44,737 nucleotides of DNA, from positions 1-44,737 of the forward strand of contig JAIXUW010000355.1 in NCBI GenBank assembly GCA_027483355.1, given 5' to 3'. Source of the DNA: Alphaproteobacteria bacterium. GTDB lineage: Bacteria > Pseudomonadota > Alphaproteobacteria > Micavibrionales > UBA2020. Position 1 is the stretch's first letter, and every line of letters starts with the position of its first letter. Below are positions 7,197 through 37,616 of this stretch, piece after piece. Position numbers and translations under genes: made by a program. The notes below the pieces were generated by a model. The model saw nothing but the letters and a program-made list of their open reading frames with translations, did no database searches and was not told the DNA's origin.

Positions 7197-10100
7197 TTAA
7201 GTTTTCCCGTATCCCTTGGCGAGATAATCGAAGGTTCTTGAAACGCCTGCGCCCGCACTATTGAAGAAGCGGATGTCAAAACCTGCTGGTGTGCGGCCTG
7301 TGATGAGAAAATAGTCTCCGGTCTCCATATCGCTGGAGGTCACGCCGATGACAGGCGTTTCCTTGAAGGCATGGATGAAGCCGACCTCCGATCCCAAAGG
7401 GATCGACACAAGGTTTCGTTTCGCATCCGTCCTATCCGGCATATCGATCTGGACGGAAAGCGCCGACACCATCGGGGATACACCCGATTGAAAGCTGGTC
7501 AGCAGAATGCGGCATTCAAAAGCGCGGGCGGTGTAATCCCCGACCACGAAATTCATCCAGTTGCTCCATGTGGGATCGTCCGTAGGATCGTCATTCGTGG
7601 TGCGGACTTGCAGCTGGACGCTGTAAGATGCCGGATCGGCGCTCTGGTCGAAATCCTCCATCACATCGACATTGATGACTTGATCGAAGTTTTGTTGCAA
7701 ATCTACGCCGTCAACGGCGATAGTGGCCGTGAGCTTCGAGGTATACACATCGCCAAGATCAAAGGCGTCCTGGAATTGATAAATGCCCGATGACAGGATG
7801 CCGTTTACGCCGAAGTCTATGTTGTCGGCGGCGTCGATATCCTCCAACTCATCGAACAAATCCGCGCTATCAAGACGTAAGATGCCCGCATCCCCAGCCG
7901 TTCCTTCATGCGTTCCCAGATAATCGGGGTAATCGCTCAAGGTCGTAATGGCATTAAAGCCTTCAACATCCGCGATGGTGGAAACCACCCGCGCTTCGTT
8001 GACGCTTTCCCTGCCGCCAAAGTCGAGGGCTTTGATAAGGTATGTTCCGACCAACGCGGGGACAGTCGCCGAGGTCGCAGGCGCAGAGACCTTCAAGACC
8101 AGATCAACGGAGCTTGACCAGGTTGCGCCCCCAGAGGTATCGGGCGAAAACTTGATCCGGTAGTGGTTAAGGTCAATGTTGGAAACGGTATCCCATGACA
8201 GGTGCGCCGTCTGGCCGTTGATATTGACCTGAAACCCGCTTACATCCGAAGGTGGCTCGGTCGCACCCACGACGTTCTGGTTGGTAATAATGGTCTGTGG
8301 TGACGCCATGCCATTGGCGTTCTTATAGACAAGGCCGATATCGTAATATTCAAAAGCCTCGACATCGATGACCCTGATCTGGTTTCCAGCCTGAAGGAAG
8401 CTGGCCGTCCTGAAGTCGGTTTCCCCCGTGGCGCGGATTTGCACATCCGTAAACAGCGTGGCGGAATAAGCCGGAGCCGCCAATGTCATGGTGATGGTCG
8501 CAGAGAACGATCCATCGGGGTTGCGGATCAAGGCTTCTTCGCCCGTCTGTACGCTCACGACAACGGGCGCTGGCGGACGTTTAAGGTCAGCCGGAACGGT
8601 GACATGGCTTTCGTAGGACGGGATCACTCCCGTATCCGCCGTATGCACAGCGGGCGCAGCATCGACGCAGGTAACCCGTGCCGTCAGATCAGATTGCGGC
8701 TCGATGCTCTTGACGATGCATTCTATGCTTTCCTTGCCAGTTTCACCAAAAAGGACAAGGTCGCCCACGCCAGGCGCCTCCGCCAACAGCAATATTTCTG
8801 TGAGCGTCAGCGTTTTTGTATCGCCAGCGACGGCATTGATAGCGCAAACCAGGCTTGTGCCATTCGCTTTTCGGATGCGGGCGGCATAGTTTTTGCCGTC
8901 TTCCATTGTGAAAGTATCGTCAACGGTAATGGCGGTAATATTGTCGCCGTCATCGACAAGAGTTTTAATACGGGCAGAACCAAGGCCGACCAGCAGAACG
9001 TCATGGGTCAGCCGGATCAGGTCGCCCCGTGTGCAGACGACATGCTCGATGTCTGTATTAAAACTGAAGGTCTCCGGTCGCAGGCGCGCCGTGGCGATAT
9101 GGTAGCGTCCATCCTTCCAGGCCTGTGCCGGATCGGTGATGCCGACCAGATCAAGTCCTTCAAATTTTGTGGCATTGGCGGCGGTATAGCCATCGTCGTA
9201 GACAATCCGCTCATCTGCCTGCCAGTCATTGTTGCGGTTAACAAACTTGACACGAAACCCGTGCGGCAGTTCGGGAAAGGCTTTCTGCGATTGAAAGCCG
9301 AAGCTATTGCGCGGCGTAAAATGCTGCGCCGGAACATTTTGCGGTTTGTCCTGCACCACACGCCACTTGCCGTCGATAACGGCAGGGCTGGCTCTGCCTG
9401 CGGCGGCGATATTGGTCAGAAGGTCATGGACACTCAGCTGGCTATCGACGACATAATTGAATTCACGCCCCGACACGACGCAATCGGTATGCCATTCCTG
9501 TATGGCGGGTAGATCAAGGCGGTTGTCGTCCAGCGCACGAGCATTGGCTTTCCCTTGCAAAACCTCGCGGTAAATGGATGCAGGGTTGGCAGTCTCGCGT
9601 ACGACCCAGCTTGAGCCGTTCCAGTCATGTAGGATGGAGCTGACAATGCCGCTAAATTGGTCGACCACGCCATTGAGCTGGTCGGTTGCCTTGATCCGCA
9701 AGACCGTGACGGCAAGGCCTTTCAATTTGACAGGGTTGTCGTTGCGGATAGAGCGAAGCGCCGTCCAGATCACCTCATCGATAACGCTGTCGCTGGTGCT
9801 ATCTTCGGTGATACGGCGCACCCGCACGTCGTATTGCCCGCGTGCGACTTTGAAGCGAAGCCCCTTGCGGACAGCCGCGCTCTGCTTTGCCGTGACGCTG
9901 ATATTATCCGTGCCGACCCATGCGCCAGAGCCTGTAGGTGCGTATTGGACTTCGAGATCAACGATCTGGTTGGTTTTCTTGCCGTTGCTGCCGTATTTGG
10001 CGAGGCCGCGTGGAAAGGTCACATCGACGCTGATCTCGTCCACATTGTCTTCCGTTGTCCGTACTTGCCAGCTTGCTTCGGCAGTGAGCGTGATAGAAAG

Positions 10101-27278: not shown

Positions 27279-28505
27279 CTATTCAGTCGCTACCAATTCC
27301 GCTTTCTTGCCCGTAAATTCTTCCCAGCGCTTGACGATCACGTCGGCGTATTTAGGGTCAAGCTCGATCATGCGGCATTGACGGTTCAGTTTTTCGCAAG
27401 CGATGATCGTCGTGCCTGAACCGCCGAAGCAATCCAGCACAATATCTCGGCTCTTGCTACTGTTCTGAACGGCGCGTTCCACCAGCTCGACGGGCTTCAT
27501 CGTCGGGTGCAAGTCGTTGCGGACCGGCTTATTGACGAACCACACATCGCCCTGATTTCGCGCCCCGCACCAGAAATGGTCAGCGCCCTGTTTCCAGCCG
27601 TAAAGAATCGGCTCGTATTGCCTTTGATAATCGGCGCGGCCCAGAGTGAAAGTGTTTTTTGCCCAGATGATGAAGGTCGACCATTTTCCACCCGCCGCGA
27701 TGAAGGCCTTTTGGAGTGTATGCAGCTCGCTCGACGACATGCAGATATAGACCGCGCCCTTGCAAACGGTCAGCATATTGACACAGGAGTCGTAGAGAAA
27801 CTGCTCAAAGCCTTCGCCCAGATTGTCATTCATGATGGTGCGGTTGGTGCCGCGCATTTTGTCTTTTGCCGTGTTGCCGTAGTCCACGTTGTAGGGCGGA
27901 TCGGTGAACACCATGTCGGCCAGCTGGCCGTCCAAAACCCTTTCGACGTTGGCAAGCACGGTGCTGTCGCCGCAGAGAAGCCGGTGGTGGCCAAGCTTCC
28001 ACAGGTCGCCAGGCTTGCTGACGGGGGTGACGGGTGCTTCCGGCACGGCGTCTTCGTCCGTGTTTCCCGCCGCGACGTTGGAGTCGGCCAGCAAGTCCGC
28101 CAGTTCGTCGTCGGAAAAGCCGATGACGGGTAGATCGAAATTCTCCGCCGAAAGCGCGACCATTTCGGCGCGGAGCAAGTCTTCGTCCCAGCCCGCATTT
28201 AAGGCCAGTTTATTGTCCGCGATGACGTAGGCGCGCTTTTGCGCCTCGGTCAGATGATCCAGCACGACGACGGGGACTTGCGCGAGGCCGAGTTGTTTTG
28301 CCGCCTGGAGGCGGCCATGCCCTGCAATGATTCCCGCCGCCGTGTCGACGAGGATGGGATTGAGAAAGCCGAACTCCGCGATGCTCGCGGCGATCTGGCT
28401 TACCTGTTCCGTCGAATGAGTGCGTGGGTTCTTGTCGTAAGGGACGAGCTTATCCGCGGGCCAGACCTCGATGCGGTCGGCCATTTTTTTGTTCAAATCA
28501 GGCAT
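27279..28505 (-). CDS. ParB-like nuclease domain fused to N6-adenine/N4-cytosine DNA methyltransferase
   Basis: The N-terminal ParB/Srx-like domain reads NPRTHS...LVDTAAGIIAGHGR. Motif IV is TDPPYNV and motif I is LDCFGGSGTTIIA. The SD is GAGGAAC. Confidence 0.85.
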   Translation of the reverse strand: MPDLNKKMADRIEVWPADKLVPYDKNPRTHSTEQVSQIAASIAEFGFLNPILVDTAAGIIAGHGRLQAAKQLGLAQVPVVVLDHLTEAQKRAYVIADNKLALNAGWDEDLLRAEMVALSAENFDLPVIGFSDDELADLLADSNVAAGNTDEDAVPEAPVTPVSKPGDLWKLGHHRLLCGDSTVLANVERVLDGQLADMVFTDPPYNVDYGNTAKDKMRGTNRTIMNDNLGEGFEQFLYDSCVNMLTVCKGAVYICMSSSELHTLQKAFIAAGGKWSTFIIWAKNTFTLGRADYQRQYEPILYGWKQGADHFWCGARNQGDVWFVNKPVRNDLHPTMKPVELVERAVQNSSKSRDIVLDCFGGSGTTIIACEKLNRQCRMIELDPKYADVIVKRWEEFTGKKAELVATE

Positions 28506-29731
28506 AGTTGTTCCTCAGATTTTGAGACCCGCAGAAGCAGAGAGAGTTCGGAACGCATAAGCCGCAACCAGCGGGACGACCCCGTTACCGCAGAGGCGCA
28601 GTCTGTCCACCCGATAGGCCAGCCCATCAGCGCCTCCACGAACAGCGGGTTCAAGGTCAGGCCGGTATTGGAGGTAACGCCGCCATCCTTCAGCGTCCGT
28701 GGGGCCTGGCGGGAAAGGTTGCTCCGGCTCTCGGCATTGCTGTTGTGGATCACGCCGTCCTTCCAGTCCCGCGCCGTCGGTGTCGCCCAATGGCGGGTCA
28801 CGATCTCTTTCAATCCGACCCCGTGGGTCGCGGCGTTGCTCCCTGGCTCCTGCGCGCGCGGCGTTGGCCATTTGGTTCTTGTGTGCGCCCGCGCCACGCG
28901 GTAAGGACGCTCGGTCTGCGCCAGCGTCAAATCCTGTTTCGTATAGGGAAAATCCCTCGGTTGCATCACTGTCTCCGCGAGCGACGGTGTTCGCAACACG
29001 TTCCGTCCGTCCTTGCGGATCATCTTTTCGGGCGGACGGGCGCGGGTTACGGTCGCATCCGTTGCCGTGGCTGTCGGCCAGAGGACGGTCTGCGCCGTCA
29101 GCGACCCGTAGCAGCGATCCGTCCGGTCGCCATTGCGTTTGAGGAACGTTTCCTGCTTCTCCGCGCTCTCCTGCGCTCTCGGTGTAAGCCAGGATGAAGA
29201 GCCGTTCGCGCTTGTGGGACGCACCGACTTCTTCCGCCGTAAACAATCCCGCCGCAACGCGGTAACCCATTGATCGAAGGTCATCGTGGACTTGTTCGAA
29301 TCCCAGTCGTAGATGCCCGCCGACGTTCTCAAAGAAACAAAGGCGGGGTTCGATCTCGCGCACGATGCGGGCGACGTGGGGCCAAAGGTGTCGTGGGTCT
29401 TTGTCTCCGAGCTTGCGTCCGGCGACGGAAAACGGCTGGCACGGATAGCCGCCATGAACGATATCCACCGCGCCGCGCCAAGCGTTGCCGTCGAAGCTGG
29501 CAAGGTCGTCCCAGACAGGTGCGCGATCCAGGGCCTTGTCTTCCATCCGCGCCACGAGCGTGGCCGCTGCATAGGCTTCCCGCTCAACGTAACCCACAGT
29601 TCGATATCCGGCGTGGGCAAGGTGGAGTCCGAGATCGAGGCCGCCAGCTCCGGCGCAGAGGGAGAGACCGAACAGACTTCCTCCCCCGTCGTTTGCGTCA
29701 AAGCATCCGGCGGGAGATAAAGCCACGTCAT
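28493..29731 (-). CDS. Alternative-frame ORF overlapping the whole C5-MTase gene; its 3' half encodes WPTP-type repeats and a motif-IX-like segment (beta-like candidate, possible internal start at 28966)
   Basis: The ORF is open for 412 codons from an ATG 4 nt downstream of the frame-A start. It encodes WLTPRAQES, WPTATATD, WPTPRAQEP, WATPTARDW and LNPLFVEALMGWPIGWT. An internal ATG at 28966 has GGAGA 5 nt upstream. The 5' half may be only a shadow of frame A. Confidence 0.45.
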   Translation of the reverse strand: MTWLYLPPDALTQTTGEEVCSVSPSAPELAASISDSTLPTPDIELWVTLSGKPMQRPRSWRGWKTRPWIAHLSGTTLPASTATLGAARWISFMAAIRASRFPSPDASSETKTHDTFGPTSPASCARSNPAFVSLRTSAGIYDWDSNKSTMTFDQWVTALRRDCLRRKKSVRPTSANGSSSWLTPRAQESAEKQETFLKRNGDRTDRCYGSLTAQTVLWPTATATDATVTRARPPEKMIRKDGRNVLRTPSLAETVMQPRDFPYTKQDLTLAQTERPYRVARAHTRTKWPTPRAQEPGSNAATHGVGLKEIVTRHWATPTARDWKDGVIHNSNAESRSNLSRQAPRTLKDGGVTSNTGLTLNPLFVEALMGWPIGWTDCASAVTGSSRWLRLMRSELSLLLRVSKSEEQLCLI

Positions 29732-29735
29732 TCAA
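28515..29735 (-). CDS. Phage DNA (cytosine-5)-methyltransferase, frame A (motifs I-VIII and X; alpha-like)
   Basis: Motifs FGLSLCAGAGGLDLG, GGYPCQPFS, FFENV and SHKRERLFILA are present, and the C-terminus carries FPPGPTDAEGW...RVDRLRLCGNGVVPLVAAYAF. The TTG start is 7 nt after AGAGG. The middle third is R/G/D/P-rich. Confidence 0.8.
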   Translation of the reverse strand: MNDVALSPAGCFDANDGGGSLFGLSLCAGAGGLDLGLHLAHAGYRTVGYVEREAYAAATLVARMEDKALDRAPVWDDLASFDGNAWRGAVDIVHGGYPCQPFSVAGRKLGDKDPRHLWPHVARIVREIEPRLCFFENVGGHLRLGFEQVHDDLRSMGYRVAAGLFTAEEVGASHKRERLFILAYTESAGERGEAGNVPQTQWRPDGSLLRVADGADRPLADSHGNGCDRNPRPSARKDDPQGRTERVANTVARGDSDATEGFSLYETGFDAGADRASLPRGAGAHKNQMANAARAGAREQRRDPRGRIERDRDPPLGDTDGAGLEGRRDPQQQCREPEQPFPPGPTDAEGWRRYLQYRPDLEPAVRGGADGLAYRVDRLRLCGNGVVPLVAAYAFRTLSASAGLKI

Positions 29736-29738
29736 GCG

Positions 29739-29773
29739 GTAACCTCTGTAACCTGTAACTGTAACCTGTAACC
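29739..29773. repeat. Five tandem GTAAC(C) units immediately upstream of the C5-MTase start
   Basis: GTAAC occurs at 29739, 29748, 29755, 29761 and 29768. The minus strand reads GGTTACAGGTTACAGTTACAGGTTACAGAGGTTACC and runs into the SD. Confidence 0.8.
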
Positions 29774-34224: not shown

Positions 34225-35882
34225 GATGCGCTCCTTGTACCGTCGATGGCGTTGCGGATGTGGTCACGGTTGAAGCGCATCGTCATCAAAGCCGATGCCT
34301 TATAGCGGGTCAGGCTATAGTCGTTGCGATGGTTGGGCAGATACTGAAGCTGTTTTTCCGTGGCAGGCTGATGCACCCAGGAGCGAGTCTTGTGTGCGGT
34401 CTCGTCCGTCTCATAAAGATTGAGCCAGTCGTCCGCCGCCGCGAAACAGAGGATGCGATCTCCCGCCGCCAGCAATGTAGCCGGACCGTTCTTGCGTCCA
34501 CCCACGGCATGCCATTCGCCGTCCTTGAGAAAGACACCGCCCCAGGCGTTGAACCCCGTGGCGAGGAAGTATTTGTCGTTTCCTTGCAGATCGACCCAAA
34601 GGAAACTGGAGCGTTGCAGCAGGTCGATCTCCGACATGACGAAGCCACCCTCTGCCAATTCTCTCGGGGCGCCTTGCGTCTGCCACTCGTATCCGCAGAG
34701 CGGACATTCCTTGACGGCGGCGGGGACTTCCGCGCCACATTCCGGGCATTCCTTCGTCGGCGCGTCCCCGTTACCCATCTGATCGTCCAGGTTCACGTCC
34801 TGCTCAAGCGAGCCATGCAACAGCGTGGACGTGCCGAAATCGAGGACGACGCAATCTTTTTTATGCACATTCGGATGCTCTGCGGGATCGACGGTGCGAA
34901 GACCGCGCCCGATCATCTGGATCATCGTGGACTTGTAGGAGCTGGGGCGGAGCAAGATCACACAAGATGTCGGTGGATGATCCCATCCTTCCGTCAACAC
35001 AGCCACATTGACGATGACCTGCGCCGCGCCGTCCGTGTATTCCGACAACACGGCCTCGCGTTCCGTGTCCGTCATGTTTCCGTGGACGAAGACGGCAGGG
35101 ATTTCTGCGGCGTTAAAGCTGCGCGCTACGTCCTCGGCATGTTGCACCGTCGAGCAGAACACGACCGTTTTTCGATTTCTGGCTTTCTCGCGCCAGTGCG
35201 AGACCACGGCATCGTTGATGGGGCGTGTGTTCATGATGGCGGAGACGGCCCCCATGTCGAAGTCGCTCGCCGTCTTCTTGACCTGGCGCAATTCGTCCTG
35301 CACACCCACATCCATGACGAAAGTACGCGGTTGAACGAGATGGCCGGAGGCGATCAGCTCCTTGACGGTGATCTGGTCGGAAACGTTGGAGAAAACCGGA
35401 CGCAGACCTTTCTTGTCGCCGCGATTGGGCGTGGCGGTCATGCCAAGAAGCTTCACGTCCTTGTTCGCCGCCTTGACGCGCTCTATCACGCGCATGTAAC
35501 TGTCAGCGCGGGCGTGGTGCGCCTCGTCGATCACGAGAACGTCCATCGGCGGCATGGCCGAAAGGTTGTTTTCCCGCGACAGCGTCTGCACCATGGCGAA
35601 GGTCACGTCCCCGCGCCACGACTTGACGGAGGCATCAAACACCCCTGTCGAGATGTCAGGGTTCACGCGCTTGAACTTGTCCTGGTTTTGGAACGTCAGC
35701 TCGTCGCGGTGCGCGAGGACACAGGCTTTTTCCGATCCACCCCTGAACATCTCTCCGATGATGGCGGAGAGCATGATCGTCTTGCCGGCACCCGTGGGCG
35801 CGACCGCCAGCGTGTTGCCATGCGTCTTGAGCGCGGAGACGGAGCGCGTGACCAGCTCCTTTTGTCTGGGTCTTAAGATCAT
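34221..35882 (-). CDS. SF2 DEAD/DEAH-box helicase with C-terminal zinc ribbon
   Basis: Walker A is AVAPTGAGKT and the DEAH box is VLVIDEAHHA. Motif VI is QMIGRGLR. The zinc ribbon reads CPECGAEV...CPLCG. ATG at 35882 has GAGGTGGA upstream. Confidence 0.85.
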   Translation of the reverse strand: MILRPRQKELVTRSVSALKTHGNTLAVAPTGAGKTIMLSAIIGEMFRGGSEKACVLAHRDELTFQNQDKFKRVNPDISTGVFDASVKSWRGDVTFAMVQTLSRENNLSAMPPMDVLVIDEAHHARADSYMRVIERVKAANKDVKLLGMTATPNRGDKKGLRPVFSNVSDQITVKELIASGHLVQPRTFVMDVGVQDELRQVKKTASDFDMGAVSAIMNTRPINDAVVSHWREKARNRKTVVFCSTVQHAEDVARSFNAAEIPAVFVHGNMTDTEREAVLSEYTDGAAQVIVNVAVLTEGWDHPPTSCVILLRPSSYKSTMIQMIGRGLRTVDPAEHPNVHKKDCVVLDFGTSTLLHGSLEQDVNLDDQMGNGDAPTKECPECGAEVPAAVKECPLCGYEWQTQGAPRELAEGGFVMSEIDLLQRSSFLWVDLQGNDKYFLATGFNAWGGVFLKDGEWHAVGGRKNGPATLLAAGDRILCFAAADDWLNLYETDETAHKTRSWVHQPATEKQLQYLPNHRNDYSLTRYKASALMTMRFNRDHIRNAIDGTRSAS

Positions 35883-36462: not shown

Positions 36463-37329
36463 TCATTCTCCTTGCGTGTTTTTGGTTTCGGATTGTTGCG
36501 GGCGGGCGTAGGTCAGTCGCTCGGCGGCGGGTTTCGCGGCACCTGCGATCTTCTCCATCAGGCGACCGAGGTGTGGCTCTTCGATCACGCCGAGACGACC
36601 GCTTCGATCCTTGGCGGGAAAGCCGTAGGGATTGAGCGTCTGGCAGACGAAGGCGCGATAGGGCGTTTCGTCATCGGCCTTCAACTCGGCCATGGTGATG
36701 ACCTGATCGACGATCCCAGGCAGCTCCAGCCCCGTCTTCGAGCCTTCGATCTGCGGCTGAAAGAAACGGCGGTTGAAGTCGTCCAGCTTCTCGTCGAGGA
36801 TGCCGACGAACCAGATGTTCTTGCCGCGCGCATGTTGCAGATGCGTGAGCCAGGCGATCATTTCCTGACCGTGCAGGCCGTAGGCCCCGCGCGTGTCGGG
36901 CTTTCCGGTCTTGTCGCTAAAGGCTTGCGGCTGCCCTTTACACCACTGGAAACAAAGCCTTCCCGCCACGGTGATGGAGTCCACGAAGACCGTGTCGTAT
37001 TTGCTGAGCGCGGCAGGGTCGCCGAAGCGCTCCTTGACCGCCTCGAAATGCGCCTGACTATAAGGTTGCTCGTCGCGCAACGCCGGATTGGGGCCGCCGA
37101 TGAACACCGCGAAGTCGCGGCATTCCTGCCAGGTGCGCGGGCGCACCGTGTCGCCCGCCCAGCCTTCTATGGCAAGGTCTCCGGCTTCAAGGTCGAAGAA
37201 CAGCGTTTTTTCAGGCGGAAGCGTCCAAAGCAAGGAGGTCTTGCCGATGCCGGACTTTCCGAAGATGCACCCTTTGACGCCGCGTCTTTCCGCGAGGCGC
37301 TCGTCAGCCGAGATGATGGGGAGAGTCAT
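36463..37329 (-). CDS. Sak4-like / AAA_24 RecA-fold ATPase
   Basis: Walker A is IFGKSGIGKTSL and Walker B-like is TVFVDSI. Confidence 0.7.
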   Translation of the reverse strand: MTLPIISADERLAERRGVKGCIFGKSGIGKTSLLWTLPPEKTLFFDLEAGDLAIEGWAGDTVRPRTWQECRDFAVFIGGPNPALRDEQPYSQAHFEAVKERFGDPAALSKYDTVFVDSITVAGRLCFQWCKGQPQAFSDKTGKPDTRGAYGLHGQEMIAWLTHLQHARGKNIWFVGILDEKLDDFNRRFFQPQIEGSKTGLELPGIVDQVITMAELKADDETPYRAFVCQTLNPYGFPAKDRSGRLGVIEEPHLGRLMEKIAGAAKPAAERLTYARPQQSETKNTQGE

Positions 37330-37616
37330 TTCGCACCCCCGTTCTTCGTCACGGCACAGACGATGTTATCGCACCCCAACGCACCGTTCTTGCGGGCCTG
37401 CTCGTAGAGGCGCTGCAGGCCGTAGAGTTCGTTTCGCAAGGTGTCCATCCTCTTGTTGATGGCCTGCACAGCGAAGGCGATGTCGTCGACCGTGGCGATC
37501 TCGAGAGGCTTGGTCACGTCCCTGGGGTCGTCGCCGCAGGGCGGGAGGTTGATGGTTTCCGGCACGTTGCGCGCCAGATAGTCATCTTTCAGAAGTTTTT
37601 CAATCTTCTTGCTCAT
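37326..37616 (-). CDS. Hypothetical phage protein (96 aa)
   Basis: It overlaps both neighbours. No motif was recognised. Confidence 0.5.
   Translation of the reverse strand: MSKKIEKLLKDDYLARNVPETINLPPCGDDPRDVTKPLEIATVDDIAFAVQAINKRMDTLRNELYGLQRLYEQARKNGALGCDNIVCAVTKNGGAK

Follow-up and report, generated by a model that had tools for sequence, protein, structure and literature searches.

The window, by which we mean the whole analysed stretch of 44,737 nucleotides, carries on its minus strand a C5-methyltransferase (C5-MTase) locus in which two full-length ORFs, here called frame A and frame B, read the same DNA. Their features are as follows.

28515..29735, minus strand: frame A ORF (alpha), 406 aa from a TTG start; predicted C5-MTase large domain
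28493..29731, minus strand: frame B ORF (beta), 412 aa from an ATG start, in frame A+1; laid out as leader, modular recognition region, motif IX and tail
29729..29747, minus strand: shared translation-start region with SD, A start and B start
29743-29747, minus strand: SD AGAGG, 7 nt before the frame A TTG
29733-29735, minus strand: frame A start TTG
29729-29731, minus strand: frame B start ATG, 4 nt downstream of the frame A start
29166..29678, minus strand: A residues 20-190, catalytic core (motifs I, IV, VI, VIII)
29628-29672, minus strand: A motif I (FxGxG)
29427-29453, minus strand: A motif IV (PCQ)
29316-29336, minus strand: A motif VI (ENV)
29184-29216, minus strand: A motif VIII (QxRxR)
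28719..29165, minus strand: A residues 191-339, R/G/D/P-rich linker, open and unconstrained as protein
28518..28718, minus strand: A residues 340-406, FPPGPxD..W followed by RVDRLRLCGNGVVPLVAAYAFRTL (pre-X segment and putative motif X helix)
28572-28589, minus strand: A putative motif X, GNGVVP
29192..29731, minus strand: B residues 1-180, leader over the catalytic core, stop-free and mostly unconstrained as protein
28658..29191, minus strand: B residues 181-358, putative target-recognition region (TRD) of W-P-T-[PAV] modules
Starts at 29191, 29080, 28870 and 28789, minus strand: four W-x-T-x modules of B, at residues 181, 218, 288 and 315
28604..28654, minus strand: B residues 360-376, LNPLFVEALMGWPIGWT, putative motif IX; dual-coding, read by frame A as EPAVRGGADGLAYRVD
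28496..28603, minus strand: B residues 377-412, tail after GWT, unconstrained in frame B

The first-pass annotation had described two full-length same-strand overlapping ORFs at this place, with the same coordinates, spacing of AGAGG and starts, and division of motifs between the frames, and all of these were recovered. Its view of the overlap as an outlier within the window stood as well: the stop-to-stop overlap of A and B is 404 codons, and the runners-up on the same strand reach 173 and 163 codons, somewhat above the limit of about 150 codons then given. Frame B extends 22 nt beyond the frame A stop and ends inside the next gene downstream, which encodes a ParB-like N6-MTase and whose start it overlaps by 13 nt. 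The GC content around the locus is about 61%, and long antisense shadow ORFs are present elsewhere in the window.

Frame A carries motifs I, IV, VI and VIII in a single polypeptide, and its homologues from NCBI bear the name 'DNA cytosine methyltransferase' and contain PF00145. When the two frames were searched separately, as had been proposed, Pfam PF00145 (DNA_methylase) matched frame A only, over residues 24-202 with 112.8 bits (cut-off 22); the match spans profile positions 4-177 of 324 and then ends. TIGR00675 reached 89.8 bits, below its cut-off of 100.65, over profile positions 3-163 of 329. In the AF2 model of A, the catalytic core has a pLDDT of 75-95 and the C-terminal helix with motif X about 90, and the linker between them, with a pLDDT of about 30-37, is disordered over residues 194-335. 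The predicted fold matches M.HaeIII and M.HhaI, on which Foldseek superposes the model over only about 173 columns. Neither the profile searches nor the model places a TRD or motif IX in frame A, in line with the earlier remark that A has no recognisable motif IX.

The generic profiles do not reach further along the locus. Pfam and NCBIfam searches with frame B, and with C-terminal fragments of B or A, gave nothing past profile position ~186 of 324; on an artificial chimera of A (I-VIII), B (TRD and IX) and A (X), PF00145 and TIGR00675 left motifs IX and X unreached. This check is uninformative for IX and X because single-frame actinophage enzymes are also unaligned past position ~186 of 324, and neither profile aligns the motif X region even in these single-frame relatives. 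We assign the putative motifs IX and X from their pattern, their position and their homology to the actinophage enzymes.

In frame B, the TRD has homologues in the LLPTP modules that actinophage MTases carry in frame. Its modules are gained or lost whole between homologues, and these module-wise indels respect frame B. The following segment, LNPLFVEALMGWPIGWT, overlaps the start of RVDRLR... in frame A (28542-28613) by 10 nt. The leader departs from its general lack of constraint at the N-terminal M-x-W-L-Y-L-P-P and at the fixed residues W60, W89, S137, S148 and R166, which represent site-specific fixation of A-synonymous sites, and a B-frame codon-phase signal covers residues 1-12, of which the first 8 are under B-frame selection. 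A leader of about 180 residues with a dN/dS near 1 is odd cargo for a subunit. M150 of B is nearly invariant in the window's subfamily; as an internal start it was rejected, having no upstream SD and not being conserved in the Paracoccus-type clade. The internal ATG at 28966 that the first-pass annotation had offered as a start is present, with GGAGA 5 nt upstream, but it was rejected: it lies inside a TRD module and its Met is L or I in homologues, among which it is the ATG at 29731 that is conserved as the start of B.

Proteins of the B type are numerous and poorly described. At least 523 homologues of B were found, and none of the 120 listed has a Pfam domain. At E<=1e-10, B-type ORFs make up 16,179 clusters (clusters at 50% identity); they belong to no Pfam or NCBIfam family and are mostly unnamed. 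The family phrog_1008 ('DNA methyltransferase') matches B over residues 91-380 (E 1.9e-18), gives no match to frame A, and appears to collect B-type ORFs. AF2 did not fold B confidently (mean pLDDT 50, pTM 0.23, too low for a fold search), and comparing the B profile with PDB sequences returned only chance matches, to picornavirus VP1.

We fetched 160 related loci from genomes and viral contigs and reduced them to a non-redundant set of 101 loci with less than 90% identity. In about 150 of the 160, neither frame is interrupted from one end to the other and B is always A+1, so that the double openness noted in the window extends to its homologues. The N-terminal half of B is stop-free in all 101 non-redundant loci, where within-region synonymous-codon shuffles predict 22%, and the middle of A, the linker, is stop-free in 96 of the 101, where the shuffles predict about 11%. 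In loci at 46-48% GC the double openness extends over 354-467 codons (shuffle P0 <=0.003). When synonymous codons of the window's own gene are shuffled region by region, B stays open over its N-terminal half in 26% of trials and A over its middle in 10%, and the window by itself is only suggestive for the overlap; its significance lies in conservation across homologues. The arrangement recurs in independent assemblies of Alphaproteobacteria, cyanophages, Firmicutes and enterobacterial phages, among them genomes with 47% GC. A blastn search against phages and plasmids yielded few matches, among them the route to the Shinella and Synechococcus phage loci. The paired starts are kept 2-4 nt apart across the 101 loci; the B start position is ATG in 95 of them, and the A start position is ATG, TTG, GTG or CTG in 94. 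Homologues carrying all motifs in one frame and differing by simple indels had been named as an observation that would speak for a pseudogene or sequencing error; motifs IV and IX stand in one frame in 0 of the 160 loci, and by comparison with its homologues the locus is evidently neither an assembly error nor a pseudogene. One clade of five loci has 4-14 stops in the A linker. In this clade motif X is still under A-frame selection, and an SD-like sequence and an ATG follow the last A-frame stop in all five.

Frame-specific dN/dS, a further check that had been suggested, alternates along the gene. It is 0.22 in A versus 1.13 in B over motifs I-VIII, 0.18 in B versus 1.25 in A over the TRD, 0.11 in B versus 1.15 in A over motif IX, and 0.07 in A versus 0.83 in B over the motif X segment, where B reads its tail. 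Codon-phase diversity agrees with this mosaic: in the catalytic core, variability is highest at the third position of A codons, and the motif IX segment has low diversity at all three codon phases. As estimated here, purifying selection switches frame exactly at the motif boundaries. C5-MTases consist of a large structural domain with motifs I-VIII as well as X, alongside a small one with the TRD and motif IX (PMC3404938), and the division between A and B coincides with these two domains. Because selection alternates between the frames in this manner, A would be the large domain, with I-VIII and X connected via a disordered, unconstrained linker, and B, after its stop-free leader, would be the small domain with the TRD and motif IX.

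A precedent had been seen in M.EcoHK31I, where motif IX comes from the beta subunit, whose coding sequence lies within that of alpha but in another frame (PMC2836561). The likeness holds insofar as there would be two polypeptides here, the second in an alternative frame of the DNA of the first, and insofar as motif IX, judged by pattern and position, belongs to the out-of-frame subunit as LNPLFVEALMGWPIGWT. It fails for the TRD, since by the published description M.EcoHK31I alpha has the TRD and its beta is short and nested, whereas here the whole TRD is in B as well. Unlike in M.EcoHK31I, B starts 4 nt after A and is co-extensive with it over the 404 codons, and frame A has an unconstrained linker in the position of the TRD. 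The subunits of M.AquI come from separate, non-overlapping genes. M.AquI is a natural two-chain C5-MTase that reassembles, with its break within or close to the variable region that follows motif VIII (PMC3404938). The window's enzyme, as its sequence suggests, would likewise be split over two chains, but here motif X remains on the catalytic subunit and the overlap of the two genes is complete.

Closer parallels have been annotated as nested pairs: ORF31 'C-specific methylase' and ORF30 'Mte8-like protein' of Escherichia phage K1G, gp32/gp33 of K1ind1 and gp56/gp57 of Paenibacillus phage Jacopo. These are members of the same family with the same architecture: their A genes also consist of I-VIII, linker and X, and their +1 ORFs have WPTP modules and NPxWVEWLMGxPxGW; an HMM of the C-terminal half of B matches these ORFs with E 1e-11 to 1e-19. 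Unlike in the window, the nested B begins within the gene, somewhere from A codon 30 to 68, and has an SD of its own and a leader of ~100 codons. These nested ORFs of distant relatives start just past an in-frame stop, with the SD GGGAGGTG, 10 nt and ATG in Jacopo and GGAG, 7 nt and ATG in K1G. Equating their 'LTLFP' with the window's 'WLYLP' was rejected, as the former is a shadow of the conserved IDLISAG of A. Two 'DNA-cytosine methyltransferase' genes are listed without comment in PMC6070908, and the 'Mte8-like protein' is merely named in PMC5582158. Our literature search found no paper analysing the nested +1 ORFs or describing this two-frame family. The first-pass annotation was not aware of a characterised phage-borne version spanning the whole gene; the arrangement had not gone wholly unnoticed, as nested +1 ORFs are annotated both in K1G and in Paenibacillus larvae phages.

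Single-frame C5-MTases of actinophages, such as gp70 of Mycobacterium phage Cornucopia, have a homologous core (hhalign 99.7%), homologous LLPTP/WPTP modules, the same motif IX and a motif X of LGNGVVP. In these enzymes a single frame covers I-VIII, some modules, IX and X, with ~14 residues between the last two motifs, and 579 actinophage records have the same motif IX directly before motif X in one frame. Since the B alignment, when compared with Cornucopia gp70 by hhalign, gave only a spurious match, of the B leader to the motif IV region, we used a local HMM of the B C-terminal half, which matches in-frame regions of actinophage MTases, including LGRPAP...FVEWMMGxPxGW, with E 4e-7 and 1e-6. 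In Cornucopia and B22, the first module or modules after VIII are in +1, and in Raleigh all modules are. Some actinophage relatives thus have IX and X in frame with the catalytic core and TRD modules in +1, which fits two subunits less naturally. A functional ORF in an alternative frame of an open phage methylase gene also occurs in the ShiLan-type insertion, an HNH endonuclease that lies out of frame, hidden in actinophage methylase genes (PMC11855218). That insertion is a mobile homing element with an unrelated nuclease, whereas frame B would be part of the methyltransferase itself.

Taken together, the locus probably encodes a split, heteromeric DNA cytosine-5 methyltransferase with two subunits from two frames of the same DNA. 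One SD site would recruit ribosomes, which would initiate at either of two codons. Initiation at the TTG would give alpha: the AdoMet-binding and catalytic large domain with motifs I-VIII, a disordered linker of ~150 aa whose sole requirement might be to have no stop codons, and then the motif X helix completing the large domain. Initiation at the ATG 4 nt downstream, in +1, would give beta: a leader of ~180 aa, also kept stop-free, then the variable W-P-T-P module array (TRD) and motif IX, which together would form the small, DNA-recognising domain. Alpha and beta might then associate non-covalently into an active enzyme, like M.EcoHK31I, M.AquI and artificially split C5-MTases. The sequence comparison shows the double openness, the alternating purifying selection, the paired starts and the homology of B to in-frame TRD and IX regions; we infer that both products are made, bind each other and are both needed for methylation. 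AF2 of B does not support the TRD as a folded domain, which speaks against the two-subunit reading, as do the odd leader and the failure of the generic profiles to reach IX and X.

The order of motifs along the DNA, I-VIII, TRD, IX and X, is canonical and is also what frameshifting would need, so that a single I-X polypeptide might be made by two programmed shifts, +1 after VIII and -1 after IX. We consider this unlikely. Distant actinophage relatives do have I-VIII, modules, IX and X in a single frame; the five-locus clade has frame A closed by stops soon after VIII with motif X still selected; and in Jacopo frame B stops 9 codons past GWT with motif X ~35 codons further on in frame A. However, neither junction has a conserved slippery heptamer or a site for a +1 shift in the 101-locus alignment; as regards the heptamer, the first-pass annotation had noted the same for the window. 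In a programmed frameshift the zero frame closes after the site, and here both frames are open far past the junctions. Two shifts need neither B open over its first 180 codons nor A open over its middle 150, both of which are kept, nor a conserved B start, a B-selected N-terminus or the dedicated SD of the nested B ORFs, and two sequential shifts would have a very low yield. Two pairs of functional segments share DNA, GWPIGWT (B) with RVDRLR (A) and GRQ (B) with PPGP (A); because each pair overlaps, a single chain made by simple frameshifts cannot hold both members. In the window, the GWT/RVDRLR overlap would leave only ~4 residues between IX and X of a shifted chain, whereas the single-frame relatives have ~14. 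The openness, the alternating selection and the lack of a shift site thus support the earlier preference for two polypeptides over a double frameshift.

A mixture of both processes seems very unlikely, with beta separately initiated and some ribosomes shifting, for example from B to A after IX, to give fusions such as TRD-IX-X, like M.AquI beta, that add to or regulate activity. M.AquI demonstrates that IX and X can work on the smaller subunit (PMC3404938), and the five-locus clade, with its interrupted A linker, must still express motif X. There is no shift signal, however, the A linker stays open in most lineages, and the SD-like sequence and frame A ATG straight after the last stop offer that clade a simpler route. 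We count the interrupted linker as tolerance of non-covalent assembly, and thus for the two-subunit enzyme. Hardly credible is that B is a shadow ORF without function, or that a frameshifted pseudogene or assembly error accounts for the locus, with only A or nothing functional. The GC-rich surroundings, the antisense shadow ORFs, the 26% of shuffles of the window's own gene and the unfolded AF2 model of B could be cited for it. Yet B is under purifying selection over the TRD and IX (0.18 and 0.11) where A is at about 1.2, indels follow the modules in frame B, the arrangement recurs in independent assemblies from all four of the groups named above, and frame A alone is left without any TRD or motif IX. 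The comparative record already contradicts such an artefact.

We lean towards regarding a very large, old class of phage and prophage C5-MTases as obligate two-subunit enzymes with their large and small domains in two frames. The overlap in the window's clade, of ~400 codons, would then be among the longest conserved same-strand overlaps in prokaryotic viruses, a whole-gene variant of the M.EcoHK31I arrangement of which nested versions are annotated in some records, without an analysing study that we found. For the evolution of overlapping genes it would be a textbook-scale case, with selection passing between frames at domain boundaries and each frame paying with a translated, essentially sequence-free spacer, the A linker and the B leader. 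Because the A linker is unconstrained, the recognition modules of B could be freely shuffled, which would perhaps give multispecific protection. For thousands of phage entries called 'DNA cytosine methyltransferase', the description would cover only the catalytic half, and current annotation and specificity prediction would overlook the recognition subunit entirely. Predicting the targets of these orphan MTases would require the hidden frame because the TRD sits there, a point of relevance for anti-restriction and the interpretation of methylomes. Split C5-MTases that occur naturally, are pre-optimised and have modular units for recognition would be of interest for targeted-methylation tools, which until now have been built on M.EcoHK31I or on artificial splits (PMC2836561, PMC3404938).

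The C5-methyltransferase (MTase) locus of the window, a lambda-like siphovirus or prophage carrying terminase, portal, tape measure, J-like tail protein, primase and helicase genes, holds two ORFs that overlap almost completely on one strand, with the 3' ends of the two frames 22 nt apart:

28515-29735, minus strand: frame A (alpha), TTG start, 406 aa
28493-29731, minus strand: frame B (beta), ATG start, 412 aa, +1 relative to A

AGAGG precedes the A start by 7 nt; B begins 4 nt beyond the start of A. The first-pass annotation had singled out this same-strand overlap as an outlier, and at 404 codons it is one, the next longest in the window being 173 and 163 codons. Motifs I, IV, VI and VIII and the near-C-terminal GNGVVP were all located in frame A, and four W-x-T-x modules and LNPLFVEALMGWPIGWT in frame B, at the coordinates originally assigned to them. 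The Pfam DNA_methylase match was confined to residues 24-202 of A, corresponding to positions 4-177 of the 324-position profile, and TIGR00675 matched A over the N-terminal half of the profile only, with a score below the cut-off. Frame B matched none of the Pfam and NCBIfam profiles; it matched phrog_1008 ('DNA methyltransferase').

Both open frames are conserved well beyond the window. A Shinella replicon, found by blastn at 75% nucleotide identity, has the same overlapping pair with a target-recognition region (TRD) about 80 aa shorter, and the distant cyanophage Synechococcus phage Yong-M2-251 has a pair of 379 and 371 aa. Frame A has more than 4,000 homologues, named 'DNA cytosine methyltransferase' by NCBI. 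More than 500 protein homologues were found for frame B, many of them full length, with 33-75% identity among the matches listed, and no Pfam domain occurred among the 120 matches listed. In a sample of 160 homologous loci, drawn equally from GTDB genomes and IMG/VR (80 each), about 150 had both A and B open over their full length, B was always A+1, and motifs IV and IX never shared one frame (0/160), which bears out the proposed split of the motifs between the frames. Five loci of 46-48% GC keep both frames open over 354-467 codons. We shuffled synonymous codons per region and per gene in a non-redundant set of 101 loci (<90% identity). The N-terminal half of B lacked stops in every locus (101/101), compared with a mean probability of 0.22 under shuffling (at most 0.003 in low-GC loci), and the middle of A lacked them in 96/101 compared with 0.11, although these loci are phylogenetically related and are not independent trials. 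Because the loci vary in identity, GC content and module content, double openness by chance or inertia is implausible. Judged from these comparisons, the two-frame locus is not an artefact.

The frame-specific selection analysis proposed in the first-pass annotation, run on the 101 loci aligned by codon, revealed that the selected frame alternates by region. The most variable codon phase changes along the gene, and Nei-Gojobori dN/dS values are consistent with that pattern.

Codon-phase variability and selected frame, by B residue
1-12: B third positions most variable; frame B
13-181: A third positions most variable; frame A
182-337: B third positions most variable; frame B
362-373 (motif IX): low variability in every phase, highest at B third positions; selected in frame B and dual-coding
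374-397 (motif X): A third positions most variable; frame A

dN/dS by region (overlapping frames give interdependent values, which indicate the dominant frame only)
Catalytic (I-VIII): A 0.22, B 1.13
TRD: A 1.25, B 0.18
Motif IX: A 1.15, B 0.11
Motif X: A 0.07, B 0.83

The phase switching and the regional dN/dS together argue for a functional division in which A supplies motifs I-VIII plus X, with the TRD and motif IX supplied by B. Variation within the TRD of the B alignment consists of whole W-P-T-[PAV] modules gained or lost. A residues 191-339 (the linker) and B residues 13-180 (the leader) are kept free of stops and otherwise vary with little restriction. In the leader, A-synonymous fourfold sites are fixed site-specifically, namely GTG at B W60 and W89, GTC at S137 and S148, and GCG at R166, and the N-terminal M-x-W-L-Y-L-P-P of B is under B-frame selection; on the evidence of the alignment, the B leader is not wholly free to vary.

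An HMM of the C-terminal half of B matched in-frame regions of actinophage MTases (E 4e-7 and 1e-6), including LGRPAP...FVEWMMGxPxGW, which argues that B carries a true TRD and motif IX belonging to this lineage of MTases. The same HMM matched +1 ORFs of other phages with E-values from 1e-11 to 1e-21. A motif IX string of actinophage enzymes, with LKALGNGVVPQQA after it in the same frame, occurred in 579 phage records. In contrast to the split locus, motifs I-VIII, LLPTP modules, IX and X share a single frame in gp70 of Mycobacterium phage Cornucopia. Since the generic profiles reached neither IX nor X in any family member tested, the assignment of these motifs rests on pattern, position and actinophage homology. 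In an AlphaFold2 (AF2) model of A, built on a 78-sequence alignment, residues 20-190 form a core of high confidence (pLDDT 75-95), residues 194-335 are a linker whose pLDDT is ~30-37, and residues 387-401 form a confident C-terminal helix (~90); only ~173 columns of it align with M.HaeIII and M.HhaI in Foldseek. AF2 of B alone gave a mean pLDDT of 50 and no confident fold, a weak point of the case.

Start signals are conserved as well. The A start codon is ATG, TTG, GTG or CTG in 94/101 loci and the B start is ATG in 95/101, with the two starts 2-4 nt apart across the clade (e.g. TTGAATG, ATGCATG, GTGTGG). In distant phages with the same split (Synechococcus S-H1, phage C72C1, Lacticaseibacillus R23.9, Escherichia K1G and K1ind1, and Paenibacillus Jacopo), B begins within the gene at A codon 30-68, directly past an in-frame stop, and has its own Shine-Dalgarno (SD) sequence in Jacopo and K1G. 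A is open over the TRD of B in all six distant lineages examined; the B leader is at least ~100 codons long in five of them and 24 codons in MW202733. Both ORFs are already annotated in K1G ('Mte8-like protein') and in Paenibacillus phages (two 'DNA cytosine methyltransferase' genes), and we found no discussion of these pairs in their accessible papers.

The most economical reading of these comparisons is that alpha and beta would be initiated separately on the same DNA and would assemble after synthesis, as in M.EcoHK31I, whose beta subunit is read out of frame within the alpha gene and provides motif IX (PMC2836561). Similar behaviour, with chains that assemble, is seen in M.AquI and in artificially split enzymes (PMC3404938). 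The main rival is a double programmed frameshift, from A to B and back to A. As the first-pass annotation had favoured, two polypeptides remain the better account: a conserved shift site is absent, B possesses a start and an SD of its own, and a double shift would leave both long stop-free stretches without purpose. The junctions also argue against it, because GRQ of B physically overlaps PPGP of A, and because GWPIGWT of B overlaps RVDRLR of A, so that only ~4 residues would separate IX from X compared with ~14 in single-frame relatives.

In a clade of five loci (L026, L027, L029, L083 and L084), the A linker contains 4-14 stops, and motif X is still selected in the A frame (A2 0.00, A3 0.16, A1 0.04). 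TGA-RGGTGTSGC-ATG past the last A-frame stop in 5/5 suggests that the motif X piece is separately initiated there as a third ORF, and in either case I-VIII and X appear not to need a covalent connection. The evidence is entirely comparative, and from it we infer translation of B, binding between A and B and a need for both.

With its out-of-frame subunit, the locus is of the same kind as the known split C5-MTases. Unlike in those systems, the hidden subunit contains all of the TRD, extends over the full gene in the clade of the window and is widespread among phages. At E<=1e-3, a B profile search retrieved 33,964 clusters (50% identity); the counts at E<=1e-10 and E<=1e-30 were 16,179 and 3,255. 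Ten clusters were scanned, and a Pfam domain occurred in none. Our literature searches yielded M.EcoHK31I and M.AquI as precedents and no published description of this two-frame family, and the hidden HNH endonuclease in actinophage methylases is unrelated to it (PMC11855218).

Further arrangements occur among actinophages, in which the MTases of Raleigh, B22 and Cornucopia are annotated as single ORFs with IX and X in the annotated frame. In Raleigh gp38 (Streptomyces phage), all LLPTP modules after motif VIII are in +1, and in B22 gp50 (Propionibacterium phage) and Cornucopia gp70 the first one or two are. With +1 modules in such annotated genes, the hidden-frame phenomenon may reach into hundreds of SEA-PHAGES genomes; actinophage genes whose modules lie only partly in +1 are not accounted for by the present model. 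A large intein-like insertion splits motif IV of B22 gp50 (GGSPC / HNCQD). In the protein P0197, from a JGI metagenome, two WPTP modules lie in the frame of the catalytic motifs, and the protein is joined to the C-terminus of the ParB-MTase upstream of it; this variant reflects natural variation by indels or else an error of assembly.

By inspection, some conserved B-type 'motifs' are +1 readings of C5-MTase motifs, both in loci L163-L166 and L170-L171 and in databases generally. GFPCQDIS read in +1 gives DFPAKTS and LENVS gives SWKTSQ, and GMMRNG-type strings come from GYDAEW-type ones (GLMRNG from GFDAEW in S-H1). Likewise by inspection, the A-frame VGRVAxG is a -1 reading of WVEWLMG. hhalign placed the B leader on the motif IV region.

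Other features of the window are as follows:

27279-28505, minus strand: ParB-like N6-adenine DNA MTase gene (phrog_498), immediately downstream of the C5-MTase
34260-35876, plus strand: antisense ORF, 538 aa, opposite the helicase
8439-9512, plus strand: antisense ORF, 357 aa, opposite a tail gene
36472-37407, plus strand: antisense ORF, 311 aa, opposite another gene

The antisense ORFs are probably GC-rich shadow ORFs. The ATG of the ParB-like MTase lies 13 nt before the frame B stop, and the SD of that gene (TGAGGAA) contains the frame A TGA; translation of the two MTase genes looks linked. The Shinella homologue has the ParB-MTase upstream instead of downstream. Four tandem copies of the heptamer GTTACAG (gene strand, window 29746-29773) lie directly upstream of the AGAGG SD and enter it, and this repeat, in an intergenic region of ~240 nt, may act as an operator or as a regulatory repeat.
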